From positions 68,800 through 132,799 of the forward strand of contig CAWHOY010000007.1 in the NCBI GenBank assembly GCA_963831155.1: a stretch of DNA of 64,000 nucleotides. The letters run 5' to 3'. Under the pieces are notes generated by a model. It was given only the letters and a program-made list of their open reading frames with translations, was not told the DNA's origin and made no database searches. The position numbers were made by a program, and so were the translations under genes. This document shows positions 10,497-60,894 of this stretch, piece by piece. Every line of letters begins with the position of its first letter. The first letter of the stretch is position 1. The stretch comes from an uncultured Acidimicrobiaceae bacterium. GTDB lineage: Bacteria > Actinomycetota > Acidimicrobiia > Acidimicrobiales > Bog-793.

Positions 10497-10509
10497 AGGT
10501 GAGGATTCG

Positions 10510-10851: not shown

Positions 10852-11096
10852 AAGCGGGCGCCTTGTCATCGGTTCTTCCGCGCGTCGATCGGCGAGAAGC
10901 TTGGCAACTTTCGAGCCGTCCGACTTCGCGCCGGCACACTCGCTGCCAGTCGCTTTTCCCGTGCGCCAGAGCTCGTCATCGACACGGCGGTGGCAGATTG
11001 CAACCTCGCGAGGGGACGGCCAAGAAGGCAAACGGAAGATCCCATACGGACCACCAATCCCACCGAACTTCGCGGGCCGCTGGAAAGGAGACTCCG

Positions 11097-12645: not shown

Positions 12646-14714
12646 TCCGCCGCCTTTTCGATCACGACTGGCGACTTTGAGAGATAATTCGAACCTCTTG
12701 TGTGCCGCCTTACTAGCCGAACGATGAGTCTCGCCAAAAGGACCACCGGCTGTTCGCGCAGCGGCACGAGCGCAGCGCCGTTCGGCAGAGTAGTGACTGA
12801 CACTATGAGTCCGATTCCGCCCATTATCAGTAGGTAGTCTGGGGACAGGTGGAGCCAGTTCGCCATTGCTAGCGCTCCGAGAGCCCCCGGGGTAAGAACT
12901 CCGCCAATCATTGCCCCGCGGACCGTCGTGATCCCGCCTAGATACGCGAATGCCACTATCTCAAGAGCGACCGTCGTATCGAACGCGTTCGGTGTGACCG
13001 ACGAGAAATCGTACGCGTAGAGCACTCCAGCCACAGCCGCGATGAGAGACGAAATCGCGATCGCCAAGAGCTTGATTCGGCGGGGACTTATGCCGACCGC
13101 CGCGGCAGCTCGCTCGTTCGACCTAACGGCCAACATCCGTTGGCCAAGCGCGCTACGACGCAGGCTGGCGACGAAGACGCCAAAGACTGTAAAGGTCGCC
13201 AAGCAGACGAACCCGAACGTTGGAGTCGGGACCAAGTGACCGAACCCAGGGAAAGCCCCAGTCGGGCCAAGATTCAGACCGAACAGTCGCGGCGCTGGAA
13301 CCGCGATCCCGGTACCTTCACCGGCGCCCCACGAAATGTTGTCGAGCACGAAGTTCTCGATAGCCACCATGCCCGCAACGGTCAGGATCGCGAGCTGTAC
13401 ACCTCGAACACGAAACGCTGGCAAAGCCACGATTACGCCGAACACCGTGGCCACTGTGATTCCAATGAGAGGGGCAAGCGGGAAACCTATTCCGGCATTC
13501 GTCGCAAGTTTTGAAACCACGACGCCGGCGATGCCTGCGAGCCCAACCTGGAACAAGGACACTTGTCCTACAAAGCCAGTGATCACGACCAACGACAAGC
13601 AGATGAGCGCTCCAATTAGTGAGTTGATAAGAGCCTCTCGCACGCCGGTCGATACGGTAAGAATCGCTATTGACCCGACCAGTACGCCTAGCAGCGCAGG
13701 CAAACCGATTCGACGCGCGCTAGGGGCGATGGGCAGTCGCGCCTCAACGAGCGTTCCGCGGACGGGGATCGTGCGACCCGCGAGCAACAGCACCGCGAGA
13801 ATGACCACGAAGTAAACAAGGTCCGCGACGCCCGGTAACGAGGTGCCGGCGGCACTTGGAAACCATGGTTTGGTCTGAAGATAAATGAGTTCCGACTGAA
13901 TGATCCCCATGCCGAGACCAGCGGCCGCGGCGACGGCGAACGACGTAAATCTTGCAATCAACGCTGCACCAAGAGCAGGAATAACCGCGAAGGCGATTGT
14001 GGTCGGGTCCAACTGGGAAGTCGGCGCCACGAGGATGCCGACAGCGCCAGCTAAGACGAAGCCGAGAAGCGTGTTAACTAGTGAGATACGTTGTGGTCCT
14101 AAACCAGTCAGCACCGCGGCCGATTCGTTCTCCGCGACTGCGCGCGTCGCGAGTCCGAACCGCGTGAATCGAAATATCGCGCCCAAGATTGCGGCTATCG
14201 CAATCACGATGCCTGTGAGAATGAATCGGTCATCTGGAACCGCGGTGCCAAACACATGAACCACGTCCGATACGCCAGACGGCAATACACTCGGCGCCGA
14301 TTGGCCGAACGGACCGAATTGTTGGACCGCGATTGCTTGAATGGTTAGGAGGAGTCCAAGCGATGCCACTAACTTCGCCAGTGGCGAAGAAGCTCGCAAC
14401 CGCCCGACGACAAAGCGATCAAACAGCCAGCCAACGACCGCACACATAGCCAAGGCAAGGCAAAATGCCGGCAGCGCAGGCAAATTTCCACCCACACCGA
14501 TAAGCGGAACCCCAGGAAGCGGTACGAAGAGCGACCCAAGCGTTCGCAGGGTGTAGTAGTCGTACGCGCCCAGCGTCGCGATGGCGCCTGTTGCGAGATT
14601 GATGACGCCTGAGCCCTGGTAGTTCAGAATGAGGCTAAACGAGAAACCCGAGATCAGGGCGCCCGTTCCGAGTCCGAGAACCGCAAAGAGTCCGAGTTGT
14701 TCCAGTACGTTCAC
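12642..14714 (-). CDS. fused LivH/LivM-type ABC permease
   Basis: 690 aa, highly hydrophobic throughout. It is about twice the size of a single Liv permease, and there is no second permease gene in the operon. Confidence 0.75.
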   Translation of the reverse strand: MNVLEQLGLFAVLGLGTGALISGFSFSLILNYQGSGVINLATGAIATLGAYDYYTLRTLGSLFVPLPGVPLIGVGGNLPALPAFCLALAMCAVVGWLFDRFVVGRLRASSPLAKLVASLGLLLTIQAIAVQQFGPFGQSAPSVLPSGVSDVVHVFGTAVPDDRFILTGIVIAIAAILGAIFRFTRFGLATRAVAENESAAVLTGLGPQRISLVNTLLGFVLAGAVGILVAPTSQLDPTTIAFAVIPALGAALIARFTSFAVAAAAGLGMGIIQSELIYLQTKPWFPSAAGTSLPGVADLVYFVVILAVLLLAGRTIPVRGTLVEARLPIAPSARRIGLPALLGVLVGSIAILTVSTGVREALINSLIGALICLSLVVITGFVGQVSLFQVGLAGIAGVVVSKLATNAGIGFPLAPLIGITVATVFGVIVALPAFRVRGVQLAILTVAGMVAIENFVLDNISWGAGEGTGIAVPAPRLFGLNLGPTGAFPGFGHLVPTPTFGFVCLATFTVFGVFVASLRRSALGQRMLAVRSNERAAAAVGISPRRIKLLAIAISSLIAAVAGVLYAYDFSSVTPNAFDTTVALEIVAFAYLGGITTVRGAMIGGVLTPGALGALAMANWLHLSPDYLLIMGGIGLIVSVTTLPNGAALVPLREQPVVLLARLIVRLVRRHTRGSNYLSKSPVVIEKAAD

Positions 14715-14752
14715 AGCTCGGGCTCTTTGCGATTTGAAACTATTGTCAGCCT

Positions 14753-16072
14753 CTACGGGATGGGCGCACTAACAAAGTGGCCGTCATTGTCGGCCTTGTA
14801 CTTGTTGTTGCCAAGATACGTGTAGAACAACCCTCGGGTCGATCCAATTGTTGCGAACGGGGGAACGCCAAACTTGATGTGTGGGTCGCCCATCCACATG
14901 GGACCGGTAAATGTGGCCGCCTTATGGATAATGGCAGAAGCGGTGTATTTGTTTTGGGCTACCAACTGATTCAACCAATGCGCAACAGTGAGGATCATGC
15001 CAAATGTCAATGGCGCGTATCCGCTATTCAGAAGGTTTGGGTTCCCATATCTGTCCATCGCCGCGACGTAGGCAGCTGTATCTGAATCCGGCGCATAGTG
15101 GGCCAGGTAGTTCAGGTTCGTGAACACGTAAGTCCATTTTGGATAATCTCCCAGTCCTTTTTTCACACCAGGTTGCAGACAAAAGGAGAGGGCTACCGTC
15201 GGCTTGTGAATGCCAAGCTGATTGAGGGCCTTATCCACGGCGATGCATTCGCCAGTCGTGGACAACGCAAGAAAAGTGGCACCGTCGGACGCGGCTCCCG
15301 AAGCTGCGATCGCGGAAATTAGGTCGGTTGAGGCCGGCGGGAACTCGACGACCGTCGATGAGACGCCAAGTGCTCCGAATAGTTCCTTGAACATCGCGAG
15401 CACTCCTGCTACCGCAGGAAGATCGGGGCCGATCATGGCGACTGACTTCACGCCAACGATTTTGGCGAGATACGTGACGAGCGAGAGCTGCGAATAGATC
15501 CCTCCATCAACGTAGAACGCATTCTTCGCCGTTAAGCCCGGTCCGTCGGTGAAAACACCGATCACTGGCTTCGCTCCAGCCATCGAATCCGTGAAGTTTG
15601 CTTCGCCTGTAAGCAACTCCCCTTCCGTTACCACTTTGACGGCATGGTTATTGATCATCTGTTGCGCGCACGAAGTGCCTTGCGCGTCAGAAGTGGTGAT
15701 GTCGCAAGTGACAAGCTTTAAAGGGTGCCCGTCGATGCCGTCAAGGTCGTCGTTGATGAAGGCGACCGCTGCATCCACGGCGCTCTGGTTCCCGGGATGC
15801 CCGGTGAGAGCAGTCTGATCGCTGACCCATCCGATCGAAATCGGCGATTTCTTGGGATCGGCGGCTCCTGGGGTGCCACCGTCATACTTGAGTGCGGCCT
15901 TCAACGCGGCTGACGGAAACGGCGGTTTGCCTGACGCGGCCGAACTCGAAACCGTCGCGACCACCGTCGCGCATGAAGCCGCCAAAACGGTCGCGAGCGT
16001 GAACGCGAACAGACCACGCCTACGTGGTTTCGTTGGCTGCATCTTCCGTCCGCTCGTCACTTCTGCCCCCAT
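14753..16072 (-). CDS. ABC transporter periplasmic substrate-binding protein (LivJ/K-like type I fold)
   Basis: 439 aa. The N-terminal RRRGLFAFTLATVLAASCA signal/lipobox-like region (alternative start 16042) and its position as first gene of the ABC operon support the call. Confidence 0.7.
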   Translation of the reverse strand: MGAEVTSGRKMQPTKPRRRGLFAFTLATVLAASCATVVATVSSSAASGKPPFPSAALKAALKYDGGTPGAADPKKSPISIGWVSDQTALTGHPGNQSAVDAAVAFINDDLDGIDGHPLKLVTCDITTSDAQGTSCAQQMINNHAVKVVTEGELLTGEANFTDSMAGAKPVIGVFTDGPGLTAKNAFYVDGGIYSQLSLVTYLAKIVGVKSVAMIGPDLPAVAGVLAMFKELFGALGVSSTVVEFPPASTDLISAIAASGAASDGATFLALSTTGECIAVDKALNQLGIHKPTVALSFCLQPGVKKGLGDYPKWTYVFTNLNYLAHYAPDSDTAAYVAAMDRYGNPNLLNSGYAPLTFGMILTVAHWLNQLVAQNKYTASAIIHKAATFTGPMWMGDPHIKFGVPPFATIGSTRGLFYTYLGNNKYKADNDGHFVSAPIP

Positions 16073-16138
16073 GACCCTTACCTCCCCCGATGGGGCCTGC
16101 GTCGCGAAGATGCCTTCGCGCGCTGGCTGCTATTCCAA

Positions 16139-16152
16139 ATGTAGTATACTAC
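16139..16152. promoter_or_regulatory. operator-like palindromic box S2 (ATGTAGTATACTAC)
   Basis: Exact 14-mer identity with the S1 reverse complement. It lies 67 nt upstream of the ABC-operon start codon at 16072. Confidence 0.55.
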
Positions 16153-16256
16153 GGGTTTACGTTCGTTTAGCGTCTGGTCTCGCTCCGGTCGCGTCCGAGA
16201 AACGGCAGTCCGTCCGCTCACGTTCTCGGTCGCACCCTAATCGAGTCCTCGACATC

Positions 16257-16985
16257 TCAACTTGGCGAGGGCGTTGTCTGCGAGACCCGAACGGCGAGGA
16301 TATTGATGACTTCCTCGCTGAACGCCGGGAATCCGATCGACATGCCGATCTTCCTCACATCAGCATCGTGGTTCGGACCTGGCGGTCCGCAACAATCGGC
16401 TACGAGAACAACGCCATAGTCGCGAGCCATTGCGTCTCGACAAGTAGCCTCAACGCAACCCGATGTCGCCCGGCCAGTCATCAGGACGGTAGTGATGGCG
16501 GCCGCATTCAAGACTTTCTCCAGGTCGGTTCTGAAAAATCCGCTGGGTCGCGTCTTGAGGATCACGGGTTCGCCAGGAAGAGGTTCGAGGCCGGCGGAAA
16601 TTCGTTCCACCCACTCGCCCTCATAAGTGCTACGTAGGCACGTCGTTTTCCAAAAGCGCGAATCCGTCGCTTCTGTTAAGCGGGATGGCACCCAAACAAC
16701 GGGGATGTTCAAGGAGCGACATCGCCCGATGAGATTCCGAAGGGCTGGAATCTCGTCCAGGTCCGGGTCTCCCGGATACATGGGACCAGCGGGGTTGTAA
16801 GGCGGTAGAGAACTGACGTCGATGCCATTCTGAACGGCAATCCACCGTGAAACGTTTGACTCCCGGTGAGTGAATTCTTCTTGCATATCGACGATGACCA
16901 AACCCGTATGTTCAGGGTCGAGCCACTCCCGAAGTACGCGCATCCGATTCACGGTGGGCACCGCGAAAGTATCTAGGTTGGCCAT
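16257..16985 (-). CDS. isochorismatase-family cysteine hydrolase, copy 2
   Basis: 242 aa. GLVIVDMQ and VLMTGRATSGCVEATCRDA match the family. Confidence 0.75.
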   Translation of the reverse strand: MANLDTFAVPTVNRMRVLREWLDPEHTGLVIVDMQEEFTHRESNVSRWIAVQNGIDVSSLPPYNPAGPMYPGDPDLDEIPALRNLIGRCRSLNIPVVWVPSRLTEATDSRFWKTTCLRSTYEGEWVERISAGLEPLPGEPVILKTRPSGFFRTDLEKVLNAAAITTVLMTGRATSGCVEATCRDAMARDYGVVLVADCCGPPGPNHDADVRKIGMSIGFPAFSEEVINILAVRVSQTTPSPS

Positions 16986-17108
16986 ATTCTCTCCTGAGAG
17001 AGCCGCAAAAGCTGACGGCTAATGGATCGATTAGATCGATACATGCGCCTCCCTCTGGCGAATCGCGGCACGACGGAGCAGAGCCGTGTGGTAGCGAGCG
17101 GAACTCGC

Positions 17109-34240: not shown

Positions 34241-34431
34241 ACGTTCGGGCGTACTAGTGGTCTCCACCGCGGCTCGATCGCTGCGCGATTTTGCCGTGGC
34301 TCATTCGAACCGCCCGCCAGTCGAAGTTGTCAGAGCGTCCGCTACCGCTCGTTGAAGTTGGCCGGGTCCCCGTGAAGTGAGCCATGCGTTGTGCGAGTCC
34401 AACGCCCATCATTGGGCAGGAGGACCGCACG

Positions 34432-34710
34432 ATGAAGCACCGTCATCACAGCCCCGAGCAGATCGTGAGGAAGCTCGCCGAAGCAGACAAGCTCCTCGCT
34501 GAAGGAAAAGACGTCGATGAAGTCGCCCGGCAGCTCGAGATCTCCGAGTCGACCTTCCACCGTTGGCGCAATCAATACGGCGGCATGAAGGCCGACGACG
34601 CGAAGCGCCTGCGCGAGCTCGAGAAAGAGAACAGCCGGCTGAAAAAGCTCCTCGCCGAAGCCGAGCTCGACAAGGCGATGCTGAAGGAGTTGGCTGAGGG
34701 AAACTTCTGA
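34432..34710 (+). CDS. IS3-family transposase OrfA (HTH)
   Basis: MKHRHHSPEQIVRKLAEADKLL...STFHRWRNQYGGM...LRELEKENSRLKKLLAEAELDKAMLKE shows an HTH plus a leucine-zipper-like end. A GGAGGA RBS precedes it. Confidence 0.8.
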   Translation: MKHRHHSPEQIVRKLAEADKLLAEGKDVDEVARQLEISESTFHRWRNQYGGMKADDAKRLRELEKENSRLKKLLAEAELDKAMLKELAEGNF

Positions 34711-34742
34711 CCCCGGACCGCCGAAGGAGAGCCGTCCTTCGG
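34698..34742 (+). promoter_or_regulatory. programmed -1 frameshift signal: slippery heptamer G_GGA_AAC plus downstream hairpin
   Basis: GGGAAAC at 34698-34704 is in correct X_XXY_YYZ phase with orfA, 1 codon before its stop. A hairpin CCGAAGGA-GAGCCG-TCCTTCGG lies at 34721-34742. Confidence 0.55.
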
Positions 34743-35573
34743 CTCGAGGAACGGTTCGGGGTCTCCGAGAGAAGGGCGTGTCTGGTCACCGGACAGTCGC
34801 GCTCGACTCAGCGCCTCCCGGTTCCCGTCCCATCTGACGACGAGCTCGCCCTCAGAGCGTGGCTGCGCGACTTCTCGCGTCGCCGTCCCCGCTGGGGATG
34901 GCGCAGAGCGGCGACCGAGGCGAAAGGAGAGGGATGGCGCGTGAACGACAAGCGCATCCACCGCCTGTGGCGAGAAGAAGGCCTGCGTGTGCCCCATCGC
35001 AAGCGCAAGAAGCCCCTGCGGGGCATCGGTGTCCACGTCGGCGCGATGTGCCCGATTCGACCGAACGTCGTCTGGGCGGCGGACTTCCAGTTCGATCAGA
35101 CGAGCAACGGCCGCACGATCAAGATCTTGAACCTCATCGACGAGTTCACAAGAGAAGCGCTTTCGACCGAGGTCGCCAGGTCGATCGACGCCGACCACGT
35201 CGTCTCGGTCTTGGACAAGATCGCGAAAGAACGCGGCCACCCCGCGTATCTCCGCTTCGACCACGGACCGGAGTTCATCGCCTACACGGTCGCCGACTGG
35301 TGCCGCTTCAACGGTGCACGAACGATCTTCATCGATCCCGGATCACCATGGCAGAACGGCTGGATCGAGTCGTTCAACGGGCGCATGCGCGACGAGCATT
35401 TGAACGGTCAGCTCTTCGACACCGTGTTCGAGGCACAGGTGCTCACCGAGGACTGGCGCGTCGACTACAACATGAACCGACCGCACAGCGCCCACGGCTG
35501 GAAGACACCAGCTGCGTTCGCCGCGGAGTGGACCATCACCCACCAACCAACACTCGCAGAACGAGTGGCTTAG
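34698..35573 (+). CDS. IS3-family transposase OrfB (rve/DDE integrase core), -1 frame relative to OrfA
   Basis: The frame is open from 34698. It reads ...RRACLVTGQSRSTQR...VWAADFQF...NLIDEFTRE...FDHGPEF...IDPGSPWQNGWIESFNGRMRDE, showing the D, D, E pattern. Confidence 0.8.
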   Translation, partial: GKLLTPDRRRRAVLRLEERFGVSERRACLVTGQSRSTQRLPVPVPSDDELALRAWLRDFSRRRPRWGWRRAATEAKGEGWRVNDKRIHRLWREEGLRVPHRKRKKPLRGIGVHVGAMCPIRPNVVWAADFQFDQTSNGRTIKILNLIDEFTREALSTEVARSIDADHVVSVLDKIAKERGHPAYLRFDHGPEFIAYTVADWCRFNGARTIFIDPGSPWQNGWIESFNGRMRDEHLNGQLFDTVFEAQVLTEDWRVDYNMNRPHSAHGWKTPAAFAAEWTITHQPTLAERVA

Positions 35574-38897: not shown

Positions 38898-39263
38898 CGC
38901 CCCTACGGACGGGGCTTGGGTGCAGCAGACCTCGCACGGTCGGAGGCGCGCAAGCGCGTCGTCACCCCGACCATGTCACCCACTGTCCCCGAATTCAGAT
39001 GGATTTCCGATTGGGGCATCGCCCGGAAGTGCCGTACTGCGTCACACTCCCGGCGACGCTCCTATCAGTTGTCAAGCCCTGTGAGTCTTCGGGAGTGGAA
39101 ACAGCGGGCAGAACAATGAAGAGCCACTCCGTGTCGGAGGGCAAGCTCTTATCAAGCCACGCGTTTCGAAGAAGTGTGTGCCGGATCGTGGATCGGCGAG
39201 TCGCCGGAAAGTCAACCCGTGTGGGCGACAGTTAGGTGATGAGCCAGATCCACGGTCGCGGGC

Positions 39264-40310
39264 TCAGCCGCGAGGTAAGTGGCGATACACCTCGCGGGCT
39301 ACGTAGCGCTTCAAGATGCGGATGACCTCGGGCTTCGTTCGTCCTTCTTTCACGCGCCGCTCGAAGTAGGCAGTCGTCTCTGGGTCGTGGGCGATGCGCA
39401 CCATGACGATGCGCCACAGCGCGCTGTTCGCTTGACGATCACCACCGCTGTCGAGTCGAAAACGACCGGTGCTCTTTCCCGATGACGCTGGGATCGGCGA
39501 CACTCCGCACAAGTGTGCGAAGGCGGCTTCTGAATGGAGGCGCTCGGGATTGTCGCCGGCGGTCACCAATAGCGCGGCGGCGGTGTCGGGGCCGACTCCG
39601 AACAAAGCGAGCAACTCAGGAGCGGTGACTGCAAGAAGCGAGTTGATCTTCGCGTCGAGATCGGTGAGCTCTCTTTCGAGCGCTTGGATCCGACGGGCCA
39701 ACGAGGACACGGCGGCCTTCGTCGCCGCGGTGACCGGATCACTCGACTGCGCGGGGCGGAGCTTCGCTCCTTCTTTGACCAAGGCGGAGACGGTGAGGCC
39801 CTTCAGGCGACGATGGAGCACGTCGGGAGCAGTGACGACCAGGTGACGCACTTGGACGACGGCTTTGACCCGAGCCTGTCGGGCGGAGCGCTTGGCGACG
39901 AGGAGGACCCGGATCGCCTCGACTGCGCCGTCTTTTGTCTTGGCGACACTCTTTGCTCGGCCATTGAGCGCTGATCGCGCGGCTTCCACTGCATCGAGGG
40001 GATCGGACTTGCCCGACCGACGCCGTTCGGCTCGGTTCGGCCGGTCGACCTCGATGACATCGACGCCGTGACGGTGAAGAAAGCGCGCCAGCCCGGCTCG
40101 ATAAGAACCGGTTCCTTCGACACCGACTTTCCCCACCGCACCGAAGCTCTCGAGCCAGGAGAGCAAGGACTTGTAGCCGGCCGGGTTGACTTCGAACGAC
40201 TTCGTGCCGATGAGACCGCCGAGTGGATCAAGTGCGGCAGCGACGTGCACGTCGAGGTGGGTGTCGACACCACCGGTCACTCGACGCGTATCTAGCATTG
40301 TCATCGCCAT
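39264..40310 (-). CDS. IS110-family DEDD transposase/recombinase, copy A
   Basis: 348 aa. VTGGVDTHLDVHVAAALD..., VGVEGTGSY and the C-terminal SGG...RQANSALW...RYVAREVY region fit the family. Confidence 0.9.
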   Translation of the reverse strand: MAMTMLDTRRVTGGVDTHLDVHVAAALDPLGGLIGTKSFEVNPAGYKSLLSWLESFGAVGKVGVEGTGSYRAGLARFLHRHGVDVIEVDRPNRAERRRSGKSDPLDAVEAARSALNGRAKSVAKTKDGAVEAIRVLLVAKRSARQARVKAVVQVRHLVVTAPDVLHRRLKGLTVSALVKEGAKLRPAQSSDPVTAATKAAVSSLARRIQALERELTDLDAKINSLLAVTAPELLALFGVGPDTAAALLVTAGDNPERLHSEAAFAHLCGVSPIPASSGKSTGRFRLDSGGDRQANSALWRIVMVRIAHDPETTAYFERRVKEGRTKPEVIRILKRYVAREVYRHLPRG

Positions 40311-40571
40311 CCCTTCCTTTCTTCAAGCGGGATTGAGGGGTGGCACGGCCGTCCCGGATCGGAGTGACGGGTGGTCCGCCTTGTTGCTGCAAGACGGGCC
40401 AATCACCCTTGCTTCGGAACGGGACGTGCCGTTTTCAATGTGCGGCCGAAGGAGCTCAACCGACGACGACCGAGGTCGTCATCACTTCAAGTCAGGCTGA
40501 ACTCCTAGCGCTCCCGAAACTATTGAGAACCAACGAACACGCGGTGGACCCTCTGGGGCATTGTCATTGTT
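40311..40571 (-). ncRNA. candidate bridge RNA (IS110 left-end non-coding region), copy A
   Basis: The conserved structured region upstream of the recombinase has the hairpin CCGTCTTG-CAGCAA-CAAGGCGG (40377-40398). Only its loop differs from copy B. Confidence 0.35.
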
Positions 40572-46598: not shown

Positions 46599-46852
46599 AA
46601 CAATGACAATGCCCTTGAGGGTCCACCGCGTCGTTGTTGGTTCTCAATAGCTTCGGGAGCGCTGGAGCGTTTAGCAGTGATGACGACCTCGGCCATCGTC
46701 GGCTGAGCTTCCGGACCCGCACATTGAAAAACGGCACGTCCCGTTCCGAAGCAAGGGTGATTGGCCCGTCTTGAGCGAACAAGGCGGACCACCCGTCACT
46801 CCGATCCGGGACGGCCGTGCCACCCCTCAATCCCGCTTAAAGAAAGGAAGGG
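46599..46852 (+). ncRNA. candidate bridge RNA (IS110 left-end non-coding region), copy B
   Basis: Hairpin CCGTCTTG-AGCGAA-CAAGGCGG lies at 46766-46787. There is long-range pairing between GGCACGTCCCG (46733-46743) and CGGGACGGCCGTGCC (46807-21). A variable block at 46664-46720 differs from copy A. Confidence 0.35.
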
Positions 46853-47899
46853 ATGGCGATGACAATGCTAGAAGCGCCTCGCGTGACCGGTGGTGTCGAC
46901 ACCCACCTCGATGTGCACGTCGCTGCGGCACTCGACCCAGTCGGTGGCCTGCTCGACACGAAGTCGTTCGAGGTCAACCCCGCCGGCTACAAGTCGTTGC
47001 TCGCATGGCTCGAGAGCTTCGGCGAGCTCGGAAAGGTTGGTGTCGAAGGAACCGGTTCTTATGGAGCCGGACTGGCACGGTTTCTTCGCCGACAAGGTGT
47101 CAGTGTCATCGAGGTCGACCGGCCGAACCGAGCTGAACGGCGCCGATCCGGAAAGTCCGATCCCCTCGACGCAGTGGAAGCTGCCCGATCAGCGCTCAGT
47201 GGCCGAGCAAAGAGCCTCCCGAAGTCAAAAGACGGTGCGGTCGAGGCGATCCGCGTCCTCGGTGTCGCCAAGCGCTCGGCACGCCAGGCGCGGGCGAAGG
47301 CTGTCGTCCAGATGCGCCACCTCGTCATCACGGCTCCTGACGAGCTCCGTTCCAGGATGAAGGGCCTGAGTGTCCCCGCCTTGGTCAAAGAGGGAGCAAA
47401 GCTCCGCCCCTCGCGATCGGCCGATCCGGTCACCACCGCGACAAAGGCAGCCATCTCCTCGTTGGCGCACCGGATCCAGGCGCTCGAGTCCGAGCTCGCC
47501 GAACTCGACGAGATGATCACCGCTCATCTCGTTGCGACCGCGCCCGATCTGCTCGCCATGTTCGGAGTCGGTCCCCACACGGCCGCCGCTTTATTGGTGT
47601 GCGCCGGCGACAACCCCGAACGGCTCCACACAGAAGCTTCCTTCGCGCATCTTTGCGGGGTGGCACCGATCCCGGCGTCGTCGGGGAAGACCACGGGTCG
47701 TTTTCGACTCGACACAGGTGGTGATCGTCAAGCGAACAGCGCGCTGTGGCGCATTGTCATGGTGCGCATCGCCCACGACCCAAAGACGACGGCCTACTTC
47801 GAACGCCGCCTGAAAGAGGGTCGAACCAAGCGCGAGGTGATCCGCATCTTGAAGCGCTACGTCGCCCGCGAGGTCTATCGCCATCTACCTCGCGGCTGA
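46853..47899 (+). CDS. IS110-family DEDD transposase/recombinase, copy B
   Basis: 348 aa, colinear with copy A. Many substitutions are scattered throughout, so the two are clearly diverged (I estimate very roughly 80-90 % identity by eye, not computed). Confidence 0.9.
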   Translation: MAMTMLEAPRVTGGVDTHLDVHVAAALDPVGGLLDTKSFEVNPAGYKSLLAWLESFGELGKVGVEGTGSYGAGLARFLRRQGVSVIEVDRPNRAERRRSGKSDPLDAVEAARSALSGRAKSLPKSKDGAVEAIRVLGVAKRSARQARAKAVVQMRHLVITAPDELRSRMKGLSVPALVKEGAKLRPSRSADPVTTATKAAISSLAHRIQALESELAELDEMITAHLVATAPDLLAMFGVGPHTAAALLVCAGDNPERLHTEASFAHLCGVAPIPASSGKTTGRFRLDTGGDRQANSALWRIVMVRIAHDPKTTAYFERRLKEGRTKREVIRILKRYVAREVYRHLPRG

Positions 47900-48262
47900 G
47901 TCCGTGGCCGTGGGTCTGGCTCTGCCCATAACTGTCGCCCGAACGGGCTGACTTTCGCGCGACCCGCCGACCCACGGCCCGGTATTCACTTCTTCGAAAC
48001 GCGTGGCCTCATAAGAGCTTGCCCTCCGACTCGGAGTGGCTCTTCATTGTTCTGCCCGCTCCACTAAAGAAGATCACCAACGGGGCTTGACAACTGATAG
48101 GAGCGTCGCGCGCGAGCATGCGCAACTGATGCGTGGCAGAAGTGCCGATCGGTGGCAGTTCCTCCCGGAGGGGCTGTGCGGAGTTAGACACCTGTCTGAG
48201 CGCTGTGCTCTCCGTCTCAGCGGTGCCGCTGTTCCTATTACCCCAGTTCAGTAGCCATTTAG

Positions 48263-48336
48263 TGGGCGCTGACGGACTCGAACCGCCGACCTGCTCGTTG
48301 TAAGCGAGCTGCTCTAACCACCTGAGCTAAGCGCCC
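48263..48336 (-). tRNA. tRNA-Val (anticodon TAC)
   Basis: The reverse complement folds as a cloverleaf: acceptor GGGCGCT/AGCGCCC, D arm GCTC..GAGC, anticodon arm GCTCG-CTTACAA-CGAGC, T arm GGCGG-TTCGAGT-CCGTC. It is 74 nt with no encoded CCA. Confidence 0.9.
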
Positions 48337-54073: not shown

Positions 54074-55030
54074 CTAAGCGGCGATCCGCGCCAGACGACG
54101 CATCGATGCGCGTGCTGGACGGCGCCTGCTCGGTGCGCGGCGTGACGTTGCTCGTTTCGCCGGGCGCCTGCGGGTCGTCCGCCGCTTCAGCGGAGCAGTG
54201 CGCTTCGCTGGCCGACGCTTCGCTGGGGCCTTCTTCGCCGGGCGACGCTTCGCTGGACGACGCTTCGCCGGCGCCTTCTTGGCGGGACGACGCTTCGCCG
54301 GGCGACGCTTCGCTGGGGCCTTCTTCGCCGGGCGACGCTTCGCTGGGCGACGCTTCGCCGGTGCCTTCTTGGCGCCACGTCGCTTTGCTGGGCGACGCTT
54401 CGCCGGTGCCTTCTTGGCGCCACGTCGCTTTGCTGGGCGACGCTTCGCCGGTGCCTTTTTCGCTGCGCGCTTCTTTGTCGCGCGGCGCTTTGCGGGGGCC
54501 TTGCGGGCCGCACGCTTCTTCGCCGGACGCTTCTTCGCCGCAGCCTTGCGTGTTGCGCGCTTTTTCGCCGGAGCCTTCCTGGCCGCCTTCTTCGGCGCAG
54601 CCTTCCTGGCTGTCCGCCTCTTTGCGGCCTTCTTCGGCGCAGCCTTTTTGGCTGTGCGCTTCTTCGCTGCCTTCCTCGGAGCCGCCTTGCGAGCCCTCTT
54701 CTTCGGCGCAGGTGCCGCTGACGCCGGAGCCGGTGCAGGCATGGGCAGTTCCGCGCTGGCGTTCAGATCCGTCTTCAATTGCGACCCGGGGGTAAAACCA
54801 ATTCCCCGAGACGCTTTGATCGCCACCGTGGCACCAGTTTGCGGGTTACGTCCGCTGCGTGCGGGACGCTGACGCAACTTGAATGTGCCAAAACCGGTGA
54901 TACGGATCGGATCACCCGAACGCACGCTCTTCGTGATCTCATACACGAGAGCGTCGAGCGCGGCCTCCGATTGCTGACGGGTCAGTCCCGAGTCGGCACT
55001 GAGTCTCCCGATCAGTTCGGTTTTATTCAC
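54074..55030 (-). CDS. hupB: HU-family nucleoid protein with about 220-aa Lys/Arg/Ala/Pro-rich C-terminal tail (HupB/MDP1-like)
   Basis: GTG 55030 lies 5 nt after AGGAGG. The HU fold reads VNKTELIGRLS...ITGFGTFKLRQRPARSGRNPQTGATVAIKA. It is followed by PAKKR/PAKRR repeats. Confidence 0.85.
   Translation of the reverse strand: MNKTELIGRLSADSGLTRQQSEAALDALVYEITKSVRSGDPIRITGFGTFKLRQRPARSGRNPQTGATVAIKASRGIGFTPGSQLKTDLNASAELPMPAPAPASAAPAPKKRARKAAPRKAAKKRTAKKAAPKKAAKRRTARKAAPKKAARKAPAKKRATRKAAAKKRPAKKRAARKAPAKRRATKKRAAKKAPAKRRPAKRRGAKKAPAKRRPAKRRGAKKAPAKRRPAKRRPAKKAPAKRRPAKRRPAKKAPAKRRPAKRRPAKKAPAKRRPAKRTAPLKRRTTRRRPAKRATSRRAPSRRRPARASMRRLARIAA
54195..54475 (-). repeat. near-perfect 45-bp coding tandem repeats (AKKAPAKRRPAKRRP units) in the HU tail
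   Basis: GACGCTTCGCCGG.GCCTTCTTGGCG...-type units recur about six times on the plus strand. Confidence 0.75.
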
Positions 55031-55302
55031 GGCCACCTCCTGTACATGTGGTGTAGCCGACGCAATAAAAGGCGATTTCGCCATGAAATGCAAGCATTTT
55101 CGATTTCGCGCGACGCGCAGACGCGCAACGTGTGTCGCGACGTCGCGAATATCTCTCACCGCTCGCGCGTCATCGCACGAGATTTACCTGTGTAACCCAT
55201 CAAAATTGCACTCACGACGAATTTTTTGCCGCCCTTTGCGATTTCATAACAGCCGTTATCTCAATCGGGAGTGGCACGCGTCAGCATCGCCTTCGCCGAC
55301 CG

Positions 55303-56739
55303 ATGATGATGCAAGAACACGACGACGCGTGGGAGGTCCATCGCCGCGTTCTCGCCGTTTCGCGGCGTACGACGCATGCGATTCTCCTCGGTGAAACTTG
55401 GGGAGAACTTGTGTTCGCGCCGGTGGAACACGGCGTGCTCGTTCTCGGACCGCCGCGTTCTGGCAAGACTTCGAGCGTCGTTGTGCCAAATGTTCTCGCG
55501 GCGTGCGGACCGGTGGTCGCAGTGTCGACGAAACGCGACGTCCTCGATCAGACGCTGTCGGCGAGGACGCGTCTTGGGGACTGCCTCGTCTTCGATCCGA
55601 CAGGATCGCTCGATGGACTCCCCGATGCGCGCCGCGTCGGATGGTCGCCGCTGCCTTCGTCTCGTTCGTGGGATGGCGCGGTGCTCGCCGCGGAAGCGAT
55701 GGTCGGCGCGAGCCGCGAAGGCCGCAATGCTCCCGACGGTTCGCATTGGACCGAGCGCGCTGCGGCCCTGTTGTCGACGATGTTCCACGCGGCCGCCACC
55801 GGTGACATGGCATTCAAGGACGTCGTCTCCGCCGTGAACCGAAGAGAGCCGCAACGATTCCTCTCCGCGCTCGCGCGCGCCGGTGCCGAGCAGGCACTCG
55901 ATCTTCTGAAGGGCTTGACCGAAACCGAGGAACGTGAGCAAAGCGGAATCTGGTCGACGGCGTCGAGCGTTCTCTCTGGCTATCGCACCCGCGCCGCGGT
56001 CGAGAACGCCTCGATCCCCTCTGTCGATGCCGATCGCTTCGTCACGTCGTGCTCGACGCTCTACATCGCGGCGCCGGCCGAGCACCAGTTGCATCTCGCA
56101 CCACTCGTCGCCGGTGTCCTCCGCGAGATCCGCACCGCCGCGTATCGCCAGTTCGCGGCGGTGACGCGCGCAACTCGGTCGCCGACGCTGTTCGTCCTCG
56201 ACGAGCTGGCGAACATCGCGCCCTTGCACGACCTGCCGGTCCTCGTCGCGGAAGGCGCGAGCCAGGGAGTCATCACCTTGGCCTGCTTGCAAGACCTCTC
56301 CCAGGCGCGAGCGCGCTACGGCGTCGCGGCCGACGGTTTCCTCACCTTGTTCGGCTCCAAGCTCGTTCTCTCCGGGGTGAGCGACGTGCGGACTCTGGAG
56401 GCGCTCTCGGCGCTCGCGGGTCGGCACGACCTGACGACGCTCACCCGGTCGTCGTCCCGGGTTGCGGGTCGGTTCCGTCGGCAGCGCACCGTCTCGTCCT
56501 CGCTGCGCAGCGAGCCGCGCCTACCAGTCGACCGGCTGGCGAGCCCGCCGTTGGGAACAGCCGTTGCCTTCATCGGCGCCGAGCCGTACCGGGTCGGCCT
56601 GACGCCTTGCTACTTGTCATCGACGTGGTCACGGATCGTCGTGCCTGCGTCGCGAGGCGAGATCGGCCGTCCGCCCCGCGAGGCCGAAGGTGTCCGTCGA
56701 CGCCTCGCCGGCACGCCTCATCATCGTTCCGACCTCTGA
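55303..56739 (+). CDS. type IV secretion coupling protein-like ATPase (VirD4/TraG/TraD family), no TM anchor
   Basis: 478 aa from ATG 55303. Walker A is VLVLGPPRSGKTSS and Walker B is TLFVLDELANIA. LACLQDLSQAR...FGSKLVLSG is typical of T4CPs. Confidence 0.75.
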   Translation: MMMQEHDDAWEVHRRVLAVSRRTTHAILLGETWGELVFAPVEHGVLVLGPPRSGKTSSVVVPNVLAACGPVVAVSTKRDVLDQTLSARTRLGDCLVFDPTGSLDGLPDARRVGWSPLPSSRSWDGAVLAAEAMVGASREGRNAPDGSHWTERAAALLSTMFHAAATGDMAFKDVVSAVNRREPQRFLSALARAGAEQALDLLKGLTETEEREQSGIWSTASSVLSGYRTRAAVENASIPSVDADRFVTSCSTLYIAAPAEHQLHLAPLVAGVLREIRTAAYRQFAAVTRATRSPTLFVLDELANIAPLHDLPVLVAEGASQGVITLACLQDLSQARARYGVAADGFLTLFGSKLVLSGVSDVRTLEALSALAGRHDLTTLTRSSSRVAGRFRRQRTVSSSLRSEPRLPVDRLASPPLGTAVAFIGAEPYRVGLTPCYLSSTWSRIVVPASRGEIGRPPREAEGVRRRLAGTPHHRSDL

Positions 56740-58893
56740 TTAAAGGTCCCGACCGATCTCGCGAGGTCGGCGAAGCGAGCGATCGAACGGCGTCCGATCC
56801 AAGGGTCGGACAGGATCGAGCGCGATCACTCGATCGGGTGCTTCGCTGCGGGAGCTCCACCTGGCGCGCTCTTTGGAGCCGAGCGGGAACCGTCCGAGGG
56901 ATCGCCGCGCACCGAGCGGCTCAGCGAAGCCGAGCGCGGCGGCCCGCCCGACACGGACCCGCTCGATCGAAGAGAGCAGGATATGAGTGCGGGATCCATC
57001 GGCGACGTCGTCGATCGCCCGCGACAGAACGGCCGCCGGGCCAACGGCGATGACCTCCGCGCACGGGTGACGGTCAAGAGCGCCCTTCAGGCGTCTCGGA
57101 TCGGTCGTCTGTCCGACGAGGTCGGCGATCGAATCCGGACGGGCGCTCACGACAATCGGTTCGTGGCCGTTCGCCCGGGCCGCTTCGGAGAGGCGACGGA
57201 CCTCGAGTGCGAGTCGCGTGAGATCCGGAGCGACGACGACGCGCACTCCGTCCACATCGAAACGCTTGAGCGGCGCCGAATCGTCAGCAATCGTCAGATC
57301 GCGGCGCGGCAGATCGCCGTGCGCGCCTCCATCGAGGAAAACGGCGGCGATCCGACCGGACCGGGCCAACGCGACCAGCTCGGCGGTTCCGCGAATCGGC
57401 GTGAAGCGTGGGCCGTCGATGACGACGAAGGCATCCTTTGGAATCGTCGAGGCCCTGGTCCAGGGCTCCGGCTCGATCCCTGTCACCGCTTCCAGGTGCG
57501 CGGCGCCGACGCGGCTCGCGGCGAAAGCGAGGATCGGCCGGCCGGCTTCGTGCGCGCTCCTTGCCGCAGTTCGCACGAACTCGTAGGCGCTGGTCGTCGG
57601 AGGGACAACAAGTCCGCCGCGTTCAAAGGCACGGGCGTCGTCGACGGCGAGAGCCAGCTCCGAGGGGCGGAGGCCGGCGAGACCGTCGTCGCGGTCGCGG
57701 ACGAATTCGGCGACTTCTTGTGTCATGTAGCGCGCTTCGGTGACGCCCGATGGAAACCGACCAGAACGCGGGCCACTCAAGTACGCGACGCGCTCGTCCG
57801 CTCGAACGAGCGGTGCCCTCTTGAGTTCGCTTTCGATTACGGATTCGACCGCTTCGACAGGCGCCCCGTCGACGAGACGCCCCGAGGTCGCGCGGACAAG
57901 CTCTCCTCGCGTGAACGGTCGACAAAAGGACGAGACGGATGCCTCCACGGCGCGGGCCAGATCGATGATCGATCCGGGGGCGTCCGCCACGTCTCGGGAG
58001 GGAGACGACAGCCGGGTGAGCGTCGAGCGCGAGATGCCGAGGTCGAAGGCGCGCTCACGCCACTGTCGAACGAGGCTCTCGTAGTTGACGTCGAGCTGTT
58101 TCGGGCGCCGGGTGCGGTTGGCGGCGACGTCTTTTGCTCGTCGCGACGATCCGTGGGCTTCTCGCAGCTCGGCGTCGATCTCGTCCGACCGCTGCGAAAA
58201 GCCCCGCAGCGCTAGCTTCGAGATCCCAACGAGATCGGCGAACCCCTCGACGCGGCGTTCCCAAGAGATGTCGAGACGATCGGAAATCGCTCGCCGGAGG
58301 CTCGCCCGGTATAGCGACCCGACGGTGCCGGCCTGCGCGTAGATCGGACGGCCGTCGATCGCCGACCACCGGCCTTCGCCGTCGACGCCGAGGTTCGCGA
58401 CAAGCAGGTGGGTGTGCAGGTGCGGGTCCGGCGCTCGGCTCGTCCGATGGACGAACGCCGCAGCGAGCAGACCGCCCGTGTCGACGAGCCGCCCGCGCCG
58501 CCGGACGAACGCCGCATGGCGCTCGAGATAGCCGAGCGCTCCTTCGACGGCGGCATCGTGCGCCTGACGCACGATGCCGCCGACCTCGTCAGAACCGAGG
58601 GCGTGCAGGACACTCACCGATTTCGGTGCGGCGAAGACGCAGTCGATGGCGGAGACCGAAACCCGCTCGTGGCGCGCATCGAGCGGTTGTCGGCGCGTCG
58701 GGTCGAGTCCTTCGAATGCGGCGGCGAGACTCGGCTGATCGACAATCGCGTCATCGATCGCAAGGTCTTTCGCGAGCGATCCCTTCCATCGCCCGTCGGC
58801 TTCGACAAGACCGTTCGGGTCCGCTCCGCCGGCGAGCGTTGTCATCAGGTAGTACGCGCCGTTCGAGCGGTGGAGGCTTCGCAGCCGCAGCAC
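56740..58893 (-). CDS. MOBF/TrwC-type relaxase with degenerate C-terminal helicase-like region
   Basis: 717 aa with a GTG start. It has an N-terminal GAYY tyrosine motif and the HUH motif PDPHLHTHLLVAN. I could find no GxxGK[ST] P-loop anywhere in the protein. Confidence 0.8.
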   Translation of the reverse strand: MLRLRSLHRSNGAYYLMTTLAGGADPNGLVEADGRWKGSLAKDLAIDDAIVDQPSLAAAFEGLDPTRRQPLDARHERVSVSAIDCVFAAPKSVSVLHALGSDEVGGIVRQAHDAAVEGALGYLERHAAFVRRRGRLVDTGGLLAAAFVHRTSRAPDPHLHTHLLVANLGVDGEGRWSAIDGRPIYAQAGTVGSLYRASLRRAISDRLDISWERRVEGFADLVGISKLALRGFSQRSDEIDAELREAHGSSRRAKDVAANRTRRPKQLDVNYESLVRQWRERAFDLGISRSTLTRLSSPSRDVADAPGSIIDLARAVEASVSSFCRPFTRGELVRATSGRLVDGAPVEAVESVIESELKRAPLVRADERVAYLSGPRSGRFPSGVTEARYMTQEVAEFVRDRDDGLAGLRPSELALAVDDARAFERGGLVVPPTTSAYEFVRTAARSAHEAGRPILAFAASRVGAAHLEAVTGIEPEPWTRASTIPKDAFVVIDGPRFTPIRGTAELVALARSGRIAAVFLDGGAHGDLPRRDLTIADDSAPLKRFDVDGVRVVVAPDLTRLALEVRRLSEAARANGHEPIVVSARPDSIADLVGQTTDPRRLKGALDRHPCAEVIAVGPAAVLSRAIDDVADGSRTHILLSSIERVRVGRAAALGFAEPLGARRSLGRFPLGSKERARWSSRSEAPDRVIALDPVRPLDRTPFDRSLRRPREIGRDL

Positions 58894-58990
58894 GTTGTGA
58901 CGGTACGAACCGGCTTCGCCTTCAGACCTACCGCCACCGCGACACGGTCATCGTGGGTCGATCTCTGATCACGACAGCGCTCGCTCGGCG

Positions 58991-59944
58991 TCAGGCGGTG
59001 ACGCCGTACCGCGCAAGCGCGCGTCGAGCCACCTCACGGCCGGCGTCGGCGAATTCTGGGGGCTCGAGCACCTCGGCACGCTCACCGAGGCCGAGGAGCA
59101 GGCGCCCGAGGAAGTGCCGGTCGGCGACGTCGATCGGAACAACGACTCGCCCGTCGTCTTGATGTTCGATCGGTCCTGACGCGAATCGGTCGAGGACGAC
59201 CGAACTCGATTGGTCGATCGCGACGCGTACCCTCGTCGCCGAGCGCCCGACGAAGGCCCGAGCACTCGAGAACTCGGCCGGCAGACTGCGCGGTGCGACC
59301 GGTTCGCCGAGTCGACGGACGCGACGGATGCGGGCCACCTGGAACCGCCGCCAGTCGCCGACCGCGTTCGAGTAAGCGTCCAGGTAGAAGCGGCCCTCGC
59401 GCGCCACGACCGCGTACGGCTCGACACGGCGGACCGATTCGTCGCCACGCTTCGCTCCGAGGTATTCGATCTCGATCGCCTCGCCGGCGACCGCCGCGGC
59501 CCGCACCTCGGCGAGTTGCTCGGGAGCATCGATTTCGACGGCGACGGTCTCGGCTCCGAGAACGACCTCGAGCTTCGCGAGGGCGCTGGCGAGCGGTCCG
59601 TGCGCGTCGACGCCTGGCATCGACAACATCGCCCGCACGGCTGCGGCGAGCGCGAAGCCCTCCTCGGCGGTGAGGCGCGGGGGACGCCCGAGAGCTTCGA
59701 GACCGTGAACACGGACGTGCTCGCCGTCGACGATCAGCTCCAACAACGCGTCCGGCGTGTACGGGGGCAATCCGCAGCACGCGGCGAGCTCGAGCTCGGC
59801 GATCAGCACGCGCTCGTCGACAGAGAATCGCTTGGCTACCTCGCCGAGGTCGGCTTCGCCGACCTCGGCGAGGTAAGCGAGGACACCGAGGAGGCGTCGC
59901 AGTCGGGTCCCGGCGTCGAGCACGTCGATCGTCTCCGCGCTCAT
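58991..59944 (-). CDS. pafC: PafC-like HTH/WYL-domain transcriptional regulator
   Basis: 317 aa. RLRRLLGVLAYLAEVGEADLGEVAKRFSV fits the family. It is the second of two tandem, 4-nt-overlapping WYL paralogs. Confidence 0.75.
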   Translation of the reverse strand: MSAETIDVLDAGTRLRRLLGVLAYLAEVGEADLGEVAKRFSVDERVLIAELELAACCGLPPYTPDALLELIVDGEHVRVHGLEALGRPPRLTAEEGFALAAAVRAMLSMPGVDAHGPLASALAKLEVVLGAETVAVEIDAPEQLAEVRAAAVAGEAIEIEYLGAKRGDESVRRVEPYAVVAREGRFYLDAYSNAVGDWRRFQVARIRRVRRLGEPVAPRSLPAEFSSARAFVGRSATRVRVAIDQSSSVVLDRFASGPIEHQDDGRVVVPIDVADRHFLGRLLLGLGERAEVLEPPEFADAGREVARRALARYGVTA

Positions 59945-60894
59945 CTCCGCGAGGACTCGACGCCGAGTTCGCGCAGCCGGTCGATGACCCGTGATCGCAC
60001 GTCCGGCGGCTCGAGGACCTCGGCGCCGTCGCCGAGGCCGATCACCCAGTGATCAAATGTCGCCCCATCGTCGATCGGTACCTCGACCGTGGCCGAGCCG
60101 TCGTCGAAGCGCGAGCGGATCGCTGCTTCTCCGAGAGCCCCGACGACTGCTGGCAGCTCACGGGCGTCCACAGCGACAAGCGCGCGCACATCGGCGTCGT
60201 GCGCGCCCTCGCCGCGAAACGGCGAGAAGTCGGTCTCGTCGGCAAGGTCGATGTCGCTCGGCACCTCGTACTCGCCCGACGATCCAACGCTCGGCAGGCT
60301 CTCGATCCGATCGACGCGGAAACTCCGTCGGCCGGCGCGTCCTTCGATCTCGAGGTCACGTCCGACGAAATACCACCGCCCGTTGCGGAAGATGAGCCCG
60401 TAACCCTCGACGCGCCGCTTGCGTCCCCGAAAGGAAAAGGTGGCGACTGCGCGGTCACGGACCGCCTGTTGCAACGGCGCCAGCGCCGGGAAGGCCGGCA
60501 ATACGGCGAGCGGCGCAACAGCGTCCGATCCCGGCGCGCCGAGCTTCTGCACGACGTCGGCGCCCATCCCCCCGTCGACGCGAACCGCGACCAAAGCGAG
60601 GACGAGCGCCGAACGCTCGTCCTCGGTCAAGTCGAGTTCGGGCAGGTAGTAGTCCTCGGGACGGATCCGATAGCCGAACTGCTCGTCGCCGCCGACTCGT
60701 TCGACGGTGATCGGGATGCCGCTGTCCCGCAGCGTGCGCTTATCACGCTCGAAGGCCTGGCGGATCGCACTCGCCTGCGCCGGGTAGCCCGCCACCTGGC
60801 CGCCGATCTCACGCAGCGACAGCGGCCGGCTCGTCTGCAACAGTGCCAGCACGAGGTTCGTCAACCGCTCGAGCCGGTCGGTTCCCGTCGCCAC
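59941..60894 (-). CDS. pafB: PafB-like HTH/WYL-domain transcriptional regulator
   Basis: 317 aa. DRLERLTNLVLALLQTSRPLSLREI...RQAFERDKRTLRDSGIPI...GYRI fits the family. Confidence 0.75.
   Translation of the reverse strand: MATGTDRLERLTNLVLALLQTSRPLSLREIGGQVAGYPAQASAIRQAFERDKRTLRDSGIPITVERVGGDEQFGYRIRPEDYYLPELDLTEDERSALVLALVAVRVDGGMGADVVQKLGAPGSDAVAPLAVLPAFPALAPLQQAVRDRAVATFSFRGRKRRVEGYGLIFRNGRWYFVGRDLEIEGRAGRRSFRVDRIESLPSVGSSGEYEVPSDIDLADETDFSPFRGEGAHDADVRALVAVDARELPAVVGALGEAAIRSRFDDGSATVEVPIDDGATFDHWVIGLGDGAEVLEPPDVRSRVIDRLRELGVESSRR

Follow-up and report, generated by a model that had tools for sequence, protein, structure and literature searches.

Why should the genes for a relaxase and a type IV coupling protein (T4CP), which as a rule occur on conjugative plasmids alone, stand among core chromosomal genes, directly downstream of pafBC, the genes for the DNA-damage regulators PafB and PafC? 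The question is raised by a 64,000-nt stretch of contig CAWHOY010000007.1 from an uncultured Acidimicrobiaceae bacterium (hereafter the window, meaning the whole 64 kb analysed). An initial annotation, made from the letters alone, had offered three readings: the remnant of a mobilisable element, a minimal module for mobilisation in cis that exploits a type IV secretion system (T4SS) encoded elsewhere or, more speculatively, a domesticated HUH nuclease/ATPase pair under PafBC. The answer that we favour, with moderate confidence, is that the pair is an ancient, vertically inherited and selectively maintained derivative of a MOBF module for conjugative DNA processing, which has become a fixed part of the Acidimicrobiales core chromosome immediately downstream of pafBC; the two genes look like a mobile-element module that was recruited for a host function.

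The listing of open reading frames (ORFs) bore out the genes, coordinates and strands given for the two proteins in the initial annotation. The T4CP gene (478 aa, 55303..56739, plus strand) and the relaxase gene (717 aa, 56740..58893, minus strand) converge, and their stop codons abut as TGA/TTA at 56737..56742, with no terminator between the genes. The relaxase gene is co-directional with pafB-pafC, and 97 nt separate the pafC stop (58991) from the relaxase start (58893).

Relaxase and coupling protein genes in related genomes

The counts of gene order given here refer to 80 genome loci (labelled L with a number) obtained from a scan of species-representative genomes. The order pafB-pafC-relaxase-><-T4CP was found in 28 of them, usually followed by HU, cofC, gpsA, rnhB and GDH; four further loci carry relaxase and T4CP on contigs too short to show pafC; 11 have pafB-pafC-relaxase without the T4CP, with ordinary metabolic genes downstream of the relaxase; and in the remaining loci the relaxase is unlinked to pafBC. 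Three extra contigs found through protein look-ups have the same gene order as the window, and the extended arrangement GT4-LPG synthase-x-pafB-pafC-relaxase-><-T4CP-HU-cofC-gpsA-rnhB-GDH is repeated in independent metagenome-assembled genomes (MAGs) from several studies. The conserved neighbours within ~10 kb in 32 related loci are core genes, few of these loci being Pfam-annotated. In relatives, the 3' ends of the two genes overlap by at most 11 nt or lie up to ~60 nt apart. No complete integrative and conjugative element with att borders was seen at the site in relatives, which carry instead the same pair at the same core-genome site. Protein searches revealed that the relaxase and T4CP families are large and belong to Acidimicrobiales wherever the source is named, and among public sequencing runs the window sequence was found in soil DNA metagenomes only, and in no RNA-seq run.

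The relaxases linked to pafBC are separated from the unlinked ones by the state of their helicase part. None of the 44 linked copies has a Walker A or B motif (patterns GxGK[ST] and hhhDE[A]), and ~29 of the 33 unlinked copies long enough to judge carry both, at positions ~440-470 and 505-537. One of the four unlinked exceptions (L038) lies beside cofC, rnhB and GDH on a contig cut upstream, and is probably a linked copy too. The linked relaxases vary in length (415 to 1127 aa), and in one clade the C-terminal domain is missing entirely (~445 aa). Accessory contexts were found in the five unlinked loci inspected, with a tyrosine integrase and/or a DDE transposase (L027, L084), type I or type III restriction-modification (L041, L054) and Fic (L054); a search with a hidden Markov model (HMM) found no homolog of the window T4CP within ~10 kb of any unlinked relaxase. 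When the relaxase domain was placed on a neighbour-joining tree, crude and without resampling support, the linked copies fell into deep clades distinct from the helicase-active one.

The four proteins of the module diverge together. Identity to the window drops in parallel from 85 to 33% for the relaxase, from 92 to 39% for the T4CP and from 88 to 37% for PafC, and the pairwise-identity matrices of the relaxase domain, T4CP, PafB and PafC are correlated across 27 loci (Pearson r 0.87-0.95). The ratio of non-synonymous to synonymous substitution rates (dN/dS), computed against two relatives, amounts to 0.16 in the T4CP and 0.17-0.20 in the relaxase domain and reaches 0.33-0.41 in the vestigial helicase domain described below, as compared to 0.07 to 0.25 for neighbouring core genes, with the exception of the repeat-rich HU tail (0.49 vs L001); the dS values of relaxase and T4CP equal those of the neighbouring core genes. 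By these estimates, both proteins are under purifying selection with conserved active sites. As far as comparison of sequences can tell, the data establish a domesticated module that was fixed before the radiation of these Acidimicrobiales lineages.

Domains of the relaxase and the coupling ATPase

Profile searches placed both proteins in the families expected from the initial annotation, the TrwC/MobF relaxases and the VirD4/TrwB coupling proteins. The relaxase matches Pfam TrwC (1.2e-64, residues 31-282) and NCBIfam MobF (207 bits against a cut-off of 100), with all matches to known families confined to residues 31-284; its closest plasmid matches share only 26-35% identity. The trans-esterase (HUH) domain comprises residues 1-290 (58024..58893, minus strand) and keeps the YY and HxHTH motifs noted earlier. 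Y14Y15 (58846-58857) align with Y18Y19 of TrwC, and the three-His metal site H158/H160/H162, within HRTSRAPDPHLHTHLLVAN (58393-58449), is invariant across the relatives aligned; inspection of the N-termini showed YY in 43 of the 44 linked relaxases, and a strict regular expression for the His motif matches 42 of the 44. The second Tyr pair of TrwC (Y26/Y27) is replaced by ADPNG and appears absent across this actinobacterial clade. The AlphaFold2 (AF2) model has a mean predicted local distance difference test (pLDDT) score of 92, and its N-terminal domain superposes on TrwC-oriT structures (Foldseek E-value 2e-16, target TM-score 0.84-0.86). The relaxase is thus predicted to keep a complete TrwC-type site for nicking and covalent attachment.

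The C-terminal half of the relaxase matches RecD2 (3gp8, 3e1s; E-value ~1e-5) and F TraI by fold search, the RecD2-like domain encompassing residues ~420-695 (56809..57636). There is no GxGK[ST] anywhere in the protein, and the guess of the initial annotation at a decayed P-loop turned out to be correct: GLVVPPTTSAYEF (57577-57615) occupies, position by position, the place that VVVGKAGTGKTFAL has in helicase-active relatives. In an alignment of 108 sequences that includes these relatives, GLVVPPT--TSAYEF falls in the VVVGKAGTGKTFAL columns and FVVIDGPRF (57403-57429) in the VIIVDEAGMV columns, and intermediate forms link the active and decayed Walker states. Because the Walker columns are decayed in this alignment, we regard the C-terminal half as a vestigial superfamily 1B (SF1B) helicase: the RecD2-like fold is kept, and the domain is predicted to have lost ATP binding and hydrolysis.

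The relaxase ends in an Arg-rich tail, disordered in the AF2 model (56743..56772). An extreme C-terminal motif, D/H-x-G-[ILMV]-[GE]-[LR], recurs in chromosomal and island-borne actinobacterial MobF relaxases, with EIGRDL as the variant in the window and DLGLGR, GLSR, HGIEL and GVGLG elsewhere (loci L001-L083), and it persists in the 445-aa relaxases without a helicase domain. The tail may be a docking signal.

The T4CP is covered by Pfam matches to T4SS-DNA_transf (6.5e-21), TraG-D_C (1.8e-19) and TrwB_AAD_bind (5e-16). Both nucleotide-binding motifs described as intact in the initial annotation were located, Walker A as GPPRSGKT (55447..55470; G49, P50, P51, R52, G54 and K55 invariant) and Walker B as LFVLDELANIAP (56188..56223; L299, D300 and E301 invariant); both are invariant across homologs, and 59 homologs share 66 invariant columns. 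The lack of a transmembrane (TM) anchor was likewise borne out, with no N-terminal hydrophobic segment or peak, whereas the closest plasmid match, a T4CP homolog of Rhodococcus pRWAY04 (~36% identity, 619 aa), has hydrophobic helices ~150 aa before Walker A. The family is large (756 clusters at 50% identity reach E<=1e-30); relatives above ~45% identity mostly begin at the ATPase domain, and distant ones often have 100-220 additional N-terminal residues. An in-frame extension of the window gene to a GTG at 55132 is possible; however, the start at 55303 is favoured because in orthologs the reading frame is closed a few codons before the aligned start.

Fold-recognition analysis of the T4CP model (AF2, pLDDT 88) reported TrwB-deltaN70 (TM-score 0.70-0.72) and Cag-beta (E-value 4e-17) as matches over the whole length of the protein, so that it can be seen as a natural equivalent of the soluble cytoplasmic part of coupling proteins. 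It has the FtsK/HerA-like nucleotide-binding domain with Walker A/B and the all-alpha domain, and is predicted to be a natural 'delta-N' coupling protein made of these two domains, cytoplasmic and with an intact ATPase.

The pafBC genes, promoters and neighbourhood

The regulators upstream are two adjacent paralogous WYL-WCX genes of mycobacterial type, pafC (58991..59944, minus strand; HTH_PafC, 7e-28, with WYL and WCX) and pafB (59941..60894, minus strand; WYL and WCX). PafC matches M. smegmatis PafC (PDB 7p5x, E-value 3e-27) and PafBC (6sj9, E-value 8e-23). Upstream of pafB lie genes for a small hypothetical protein, an LPG-synthase TM protein and a GT4 glycosyltransferase; no pafA adjoins pafBC, and an operon with pafA or Pup-proteasome genes was not seen upstream in the window or in relatives. 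Within pafC (59837-59875, codons ~23-36) the DNA contains a perfect inverted repeat of 18 bp around a 3-nt loop; it was dropped as a candidate as lineage-specific, retaining 15 of 18 pairs in the closest intact relative and 3-7 bp in other orthologs.

The relaxase gene has a predicted promoter of its own (58900..58933, minus strand), composed of a CGGTAGG box (58927-58933), a spacer of 21 nt (19 nt when counted from the extended box CGGTAGGTC) and a TACCGT -10 element (58900-58905) that ends 6 nt before the GTG start. In 11 of the 25 loci of the window's clade CGGTAGG precedes the relaxase start by 40-42 nt, as against 0.005 expected per sequence, and the TAnnnT -10 that follows it ends 6-8 nt before the start codon, a distance that suggests leaderless relaxase transcripts. 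A search for CGGTAGG-N18-22-TAnnn[TA]-N5-9-start with an ORF of at least 80 aa downstream, on both strands of ~1.4 Mb of all loci, returned 20 matches: 17 before the relaxase, two before pafB and one before adenylate cyclase. Most pafB promoters of the window's clade have GGTA[GT][GC] at the same distance from the -10, and T4CP promoters carry a GGTAGG box too, with different spacings. The window's pafB has a TAGATT -10 six nt before its GTG start, and the HU promoter, of housekeeping type, has a TTGCAT -35 instead of GGTAGG. The 8-mer CCGGTAGG is not enriched window-wide (45 vs 44 expected) and was rejected as a general signal, being informative solely by its position at orthologous promoters.

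In the window and two relatives the pafC stop and a GC-rich hairpin overlap, which fits separate transcription units for pafC and the relaxase. The clade with short relaxases (L046, L061, L068, L070, L073, L081) has AT-rich upstream DNA with repeated (A)CATGAAA and ATAGAAAG-like words and no GGTAGG, which suggests control by a different regulator.

The mycobacterial PafBC promoter motif is tGTCgg-N10-tAnnnT (PMC8635444). A RecA-NDp/PafBC box, TGTCRGTG-N8-TANNNT (up to 2 mismatches), was tried and rejected: it occurs 20 times in the window against 12 expected, and never near the pair. Motif scans for recA, uvrA, ruvB etc. in 87 loci, made to define a local PafBC box, found none.

On the other side of the pair, HU (54074..55033, minus strand) is a conserved neighbour divergent from the T4CP, and its long tail, rich in Lys, Ala and Pro, derives from 15/45-nt tandem repeats at 54111-54700. 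The promoter and ribosome-binding region of HU is nearly invariant across relatives, and the T4CP side of the same spacer varies.

The window was searched for mobile-element genes with Pfam scans of 36 selected ORFs (mostly >=180 aa) and the four proteins of the module, short ORFs being left out. Among these, in agreement with the initial annotation, no VirB4, FtsK/TraB or tyrosine/serine recombinase was found, nor do att-like direct repeats flank the pair; a second T4CP did not appear among the scanned ORFs either. T4SS genes were absent among the scanned ORFs and among the annotated or conserved neighbours of related loci. The sole mobile-element genes seen in the window are one IS3-type and two IS110-type transposases, 8-20 kb from the pair. 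The IS110 copies (39103-40435 and 46728-48060) are inverted, 85% identical over 1333 nt and enclose 6.3 kb; the IS3-type (rve) ORF (34381-35573) lies upstream of them and tRNA-Val (48262-48336), the sole hit of the Rfam scan, just downstream. This arrangement looks like a composite transposon or small island. A stretch at ~5000-17000 has a G+C content of 0.56-0.59 as compared to 0.63-0.70 elsewhere, and encodes an amidase, two isochorismatases, an SDR and a branched-chain amino-acid ABC transporter; these metabolic genes led us to reject it as a T4SS island, and it may be a horizontally acquired metabolic island.

Competing explanations and known systems

With regard to function, we put forward only tentatively that the module has a role in cytoplasmic processing of host single-stranded DNA (ssDNA), coupled to the PafBC DNA-damage circuit, rather than in self-transfer of a mobile element. 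This role is favoured because pafBC is the most persistent partner of the relaxase, is described as activated by ssDNA in PMC11804915, and in one clade has a rare promoter box in common with it. The relaxase would nick a specific single-stranded or hairpin site in the chromosome and stay covalently attached to the 5' end; the dead helicase domain would act as an ssDNA clamp, in the way that F TraI binds ssDNA through a vestigial helicase domain devoid of Walker A/B (PMC5422253); and the soluble T4CP, as a hexamer, would be the motor that spools ssDNA at the expense of ATP. In its broadest form the proposal is that Acidimicrobiales/Acidimicrobiia recruited the DNA-processing half of conjugation, in the form of a relaxase that only nicks and a coupling ATPase that is soluble, both tied to PafBC by gene order and by transcription; this could be the first host-domesticated relaxase/T4CP system, a possibility that we regard as somewhat doubtful.

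Several observations weigh against a maintained host module under PafBC. The T4CP is absent from the 11 pafBC-linked loci mentioned above, which makes the module dispensable in some lineages, and its ORF is split in L016 and L067 (an apparent frameshift, for which an error of long-read sequencing is possible). In the closest relative (L002/L003) the relaxase is interrupted at codon ~88 by a defence island, although the module is intact in a second close relative, L085. No nic target site was identified, and a perfect-stem scan, which imperfect or distant sites would escape, found no conserved hairpin or oriT in the pafC-relaxase or T4CP-HU spacers. The GGTAGG box is limited to one clade and is missing from the window's own pafB, and no mycobacterial PafBC box occurs near the pair (up to 2 mismatches, 53.1 to 64 kb). 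Finally, the conserved C-terminal tail is common to mobile relaxases, so continued docking to a secretion pathway fits it equally well. The suggestion of a domesticated pair under PafBC made in the initial annotation therefore stands in part: domestication is supported, and so is the linkage to PafBC, because the adjacency of pafBC and relaxase outlasts the loss of the T4CP and relaxase and pafB have a promoter box in common, but the mycobacterial-type box expected of PafBC targets was not found near the pair.

The insertion in L002/L003 is AT-rich, at least 10 kb long (L002 1-9988) and lies exactly at the APKSVS motif, the junction corresponding to position 58629 of the window; it encodes ThsB-TIR, 8xMP, DUF7701, an N6/N4 methyltransferase and a serine recombinase, and the L002/L003 DNA compared does not reach the pafBC side. 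Of the palindrome GTCGCGAC, the T4CP-HU spacer holds two overlapping copies in the window (55134-55152) and five within ~100 nt in L053 (3852-3942); with a background of 0.08 per kb and no conservation across loci, it was dropped as an oriT candidate.

The evidence of loss in this family (helicase motifs gone, C-terminal domain deleted in one clade, T4CP missing in some lineages, relaxase broken by the island in L002/L003, dN/dS raised to 0.33-0.41 in the C-terminal domain) could be taken as signs that an integrated mobilisable or conjugative element is decaying and that its remnant is still to be purged. This is very improbable and has been largely refuted: the pair holds the same core position in dozens of genomes diverged to ~35-45% identity, a depth at which a neutral remnant would no longer be intact, and it does so with dN/dS of 0.16-0.20, conserved catalytic residues, the dS of neighbouring core genes and neither integrase nor att repeats. 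Depth of synteny, co-divergence, core-like dN/dS, catalytic residues and the complete separation from helicase-active island paralogs, taken as a whole, leave no room for an element that is recent or in neutral decay, and simple decay, as considered in the initial annotation, is not supported. As for the main competing reading, we think it rather unlikely that the pair serves mobilisation in cis or DNA export, with the relaxase nicking a chromosomal oriT and the T4CP passing the complex, possibly via a membrane partner, to a T4SS or channel encoded elsewhere, and with transfer of the chromosome as in high-frequency-of-recombination (Hfr) strains or ssDNA secretion, as in the gonococcal genetic island, as the outcome. 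The two proteins do keep everything required of a relaxosome and T4CP except the helicase and the TM anchor, including the substrate-recognition domain TraG-D_C and the tail motif common to mobile actinobacterial relaxases, which is kept even in the 445-aa forms, and on plasmid pIP501 a TM-less T4CP is reportedly recruited by a partner. However, a helicase motor is normally needed by MOBF conjugation and is dead in 44 of 44 linked copies, the T4CP has no membrane anchor, the relaxase occurs without it in 11 lineages, and neither a T4SS gene (scanned ORFs of the 64-kb window), nor a second T4CP (HMM search of all loci), nor a conserved oriT hairpin (perfect-stem scan of both spacers) was found, the conserved neighbours within ~10 kb in the 32 related loci, few of them Pfam-annotated, being core genes.

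A function against plasmids or phages, in which a chromosomal relaxase/T4CP decoy regulated by WYL proteins would capture or nick incoming conjugative or rolling-circle DNA, appears improbable. WYL regulators frequently govern defence systems, and the locus hosts the insertion of a defence island in L002; PADLOC reported its WYL models for PafB and PafC, and in addition only a weak match of the T4CP to mad8 (E-value 5.5e-6). But the WYL pair is of PafBC type (HTH_PafC domain, match to M. smegmatis PafC), the relaxase has no match to a defence family, and fixed core synteny with vertical descent is unlike defence islands.

The protein families as such are already known, and the MAG annotations read 'MobF family relaxase' and 'type IV secretory system conjugative DNA transfer family protein'. 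In the literature searched, we found no description of a pafBC-linked, helicase-dead, core-genome relaxase/T4CP module, and no relaxase near pafBC was found in the PafBC literature searched. MOBscan, CONJscan and MOB-suite take relaxases and coupling proteins as diagnostic of mobile DNA; a core-fixed, vertically inherited pair, if truly such, would make such tools report a mobilisable element wrongly in each genome of the Acidimicrobiales. If the module serves the host, the nick, attach and pump chemistry of conjugation would be re-usable within the cell, and PafBC, for which the source of the ssDNA signal is an open question, would gain a concrete and testable partner. The series from active helicase through motif-dead fold to full deletion is a natural experiment on what a relaxase needs when relieved of DNA transfer.

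Among known systems, the relaxase is closest to the MOBF family (TrwC of R388, TraA/MobF of actinobacterial plasmids), with which it shares the HUH fold (TM-score 0.85), the HxDP.LHTH triad, the first Tyr pair, a MobF score above the cut-off, the RecD2-like C-terminal architecture and the C-terminal tail motif. It differs in lacking Walker A/B in every linked copy, and hence an active SF1B helicase, and in lacking the second Tyr pair (TrwC Y26); rather than being carried by a plasmid or by an integrative conjugative or mobilisable element (IME), it is a core-chromosomal gene with conserved synteny and vertical co-divergence, beside which no T4SS, oriT or accessory relaxosome gene was found. 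In TraI of F/R1, too, a trans-esterase is followed by a RecD2-like domain without Walker A/B, as in TraI 1-863, and this domain binds ssDNA (PMC5422253); TraI also has a second, active helicase domain, whereas the window relaxase has no active motor. The T4CP resembles VirD4/TrwB/TraG, and in particular the engineered TrwB-deltaN70, in its nucleotide-binding and all-alpha domains, Walker A/B and TraG-D_C, but it naturally lacks the TM anchor of its nearest plasmid homologs (36% identity; Rhodococcus and Mycobacterium plasmids) and does not stand beside any T4SS.

IMEs are by the usual definition strain-variable islands with integrases and att sites. They and other orphan relaxase-T4CP pairs (e.g. 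the chromosomal relaxases and VirD4 homologs of H. pylori) resemble our pair in having no cognate mating-pair apparatus; the latter, in contrast, has fixed core synteny with neither integrase nor att, and no element borders in relatives. The comparison with the mycobacterial PafBC regulon reveals the same adjacent PafB and PafC with the WYL architecture for ssDNA sensing and a sigma-A type TAnnnT -10 with an upstream box, this box being, however, GGTAGG at about -35 in the window's clade and tGTCgg at -26 in mycobacteria, and pafA not being adjacent in the window.

A further parallel is offered by RAYT/TnpA-REP proteins, domesticated HUH endonucleases of the Y1 transposase family that are associated with REP repeats and have no ATPase partner. 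By its HUH family and its ATPase partner the relaxase is different from them, but the concept would be the same: an HUH single-strand nuclease of a mobile element kept as a vertically inherited host gene.

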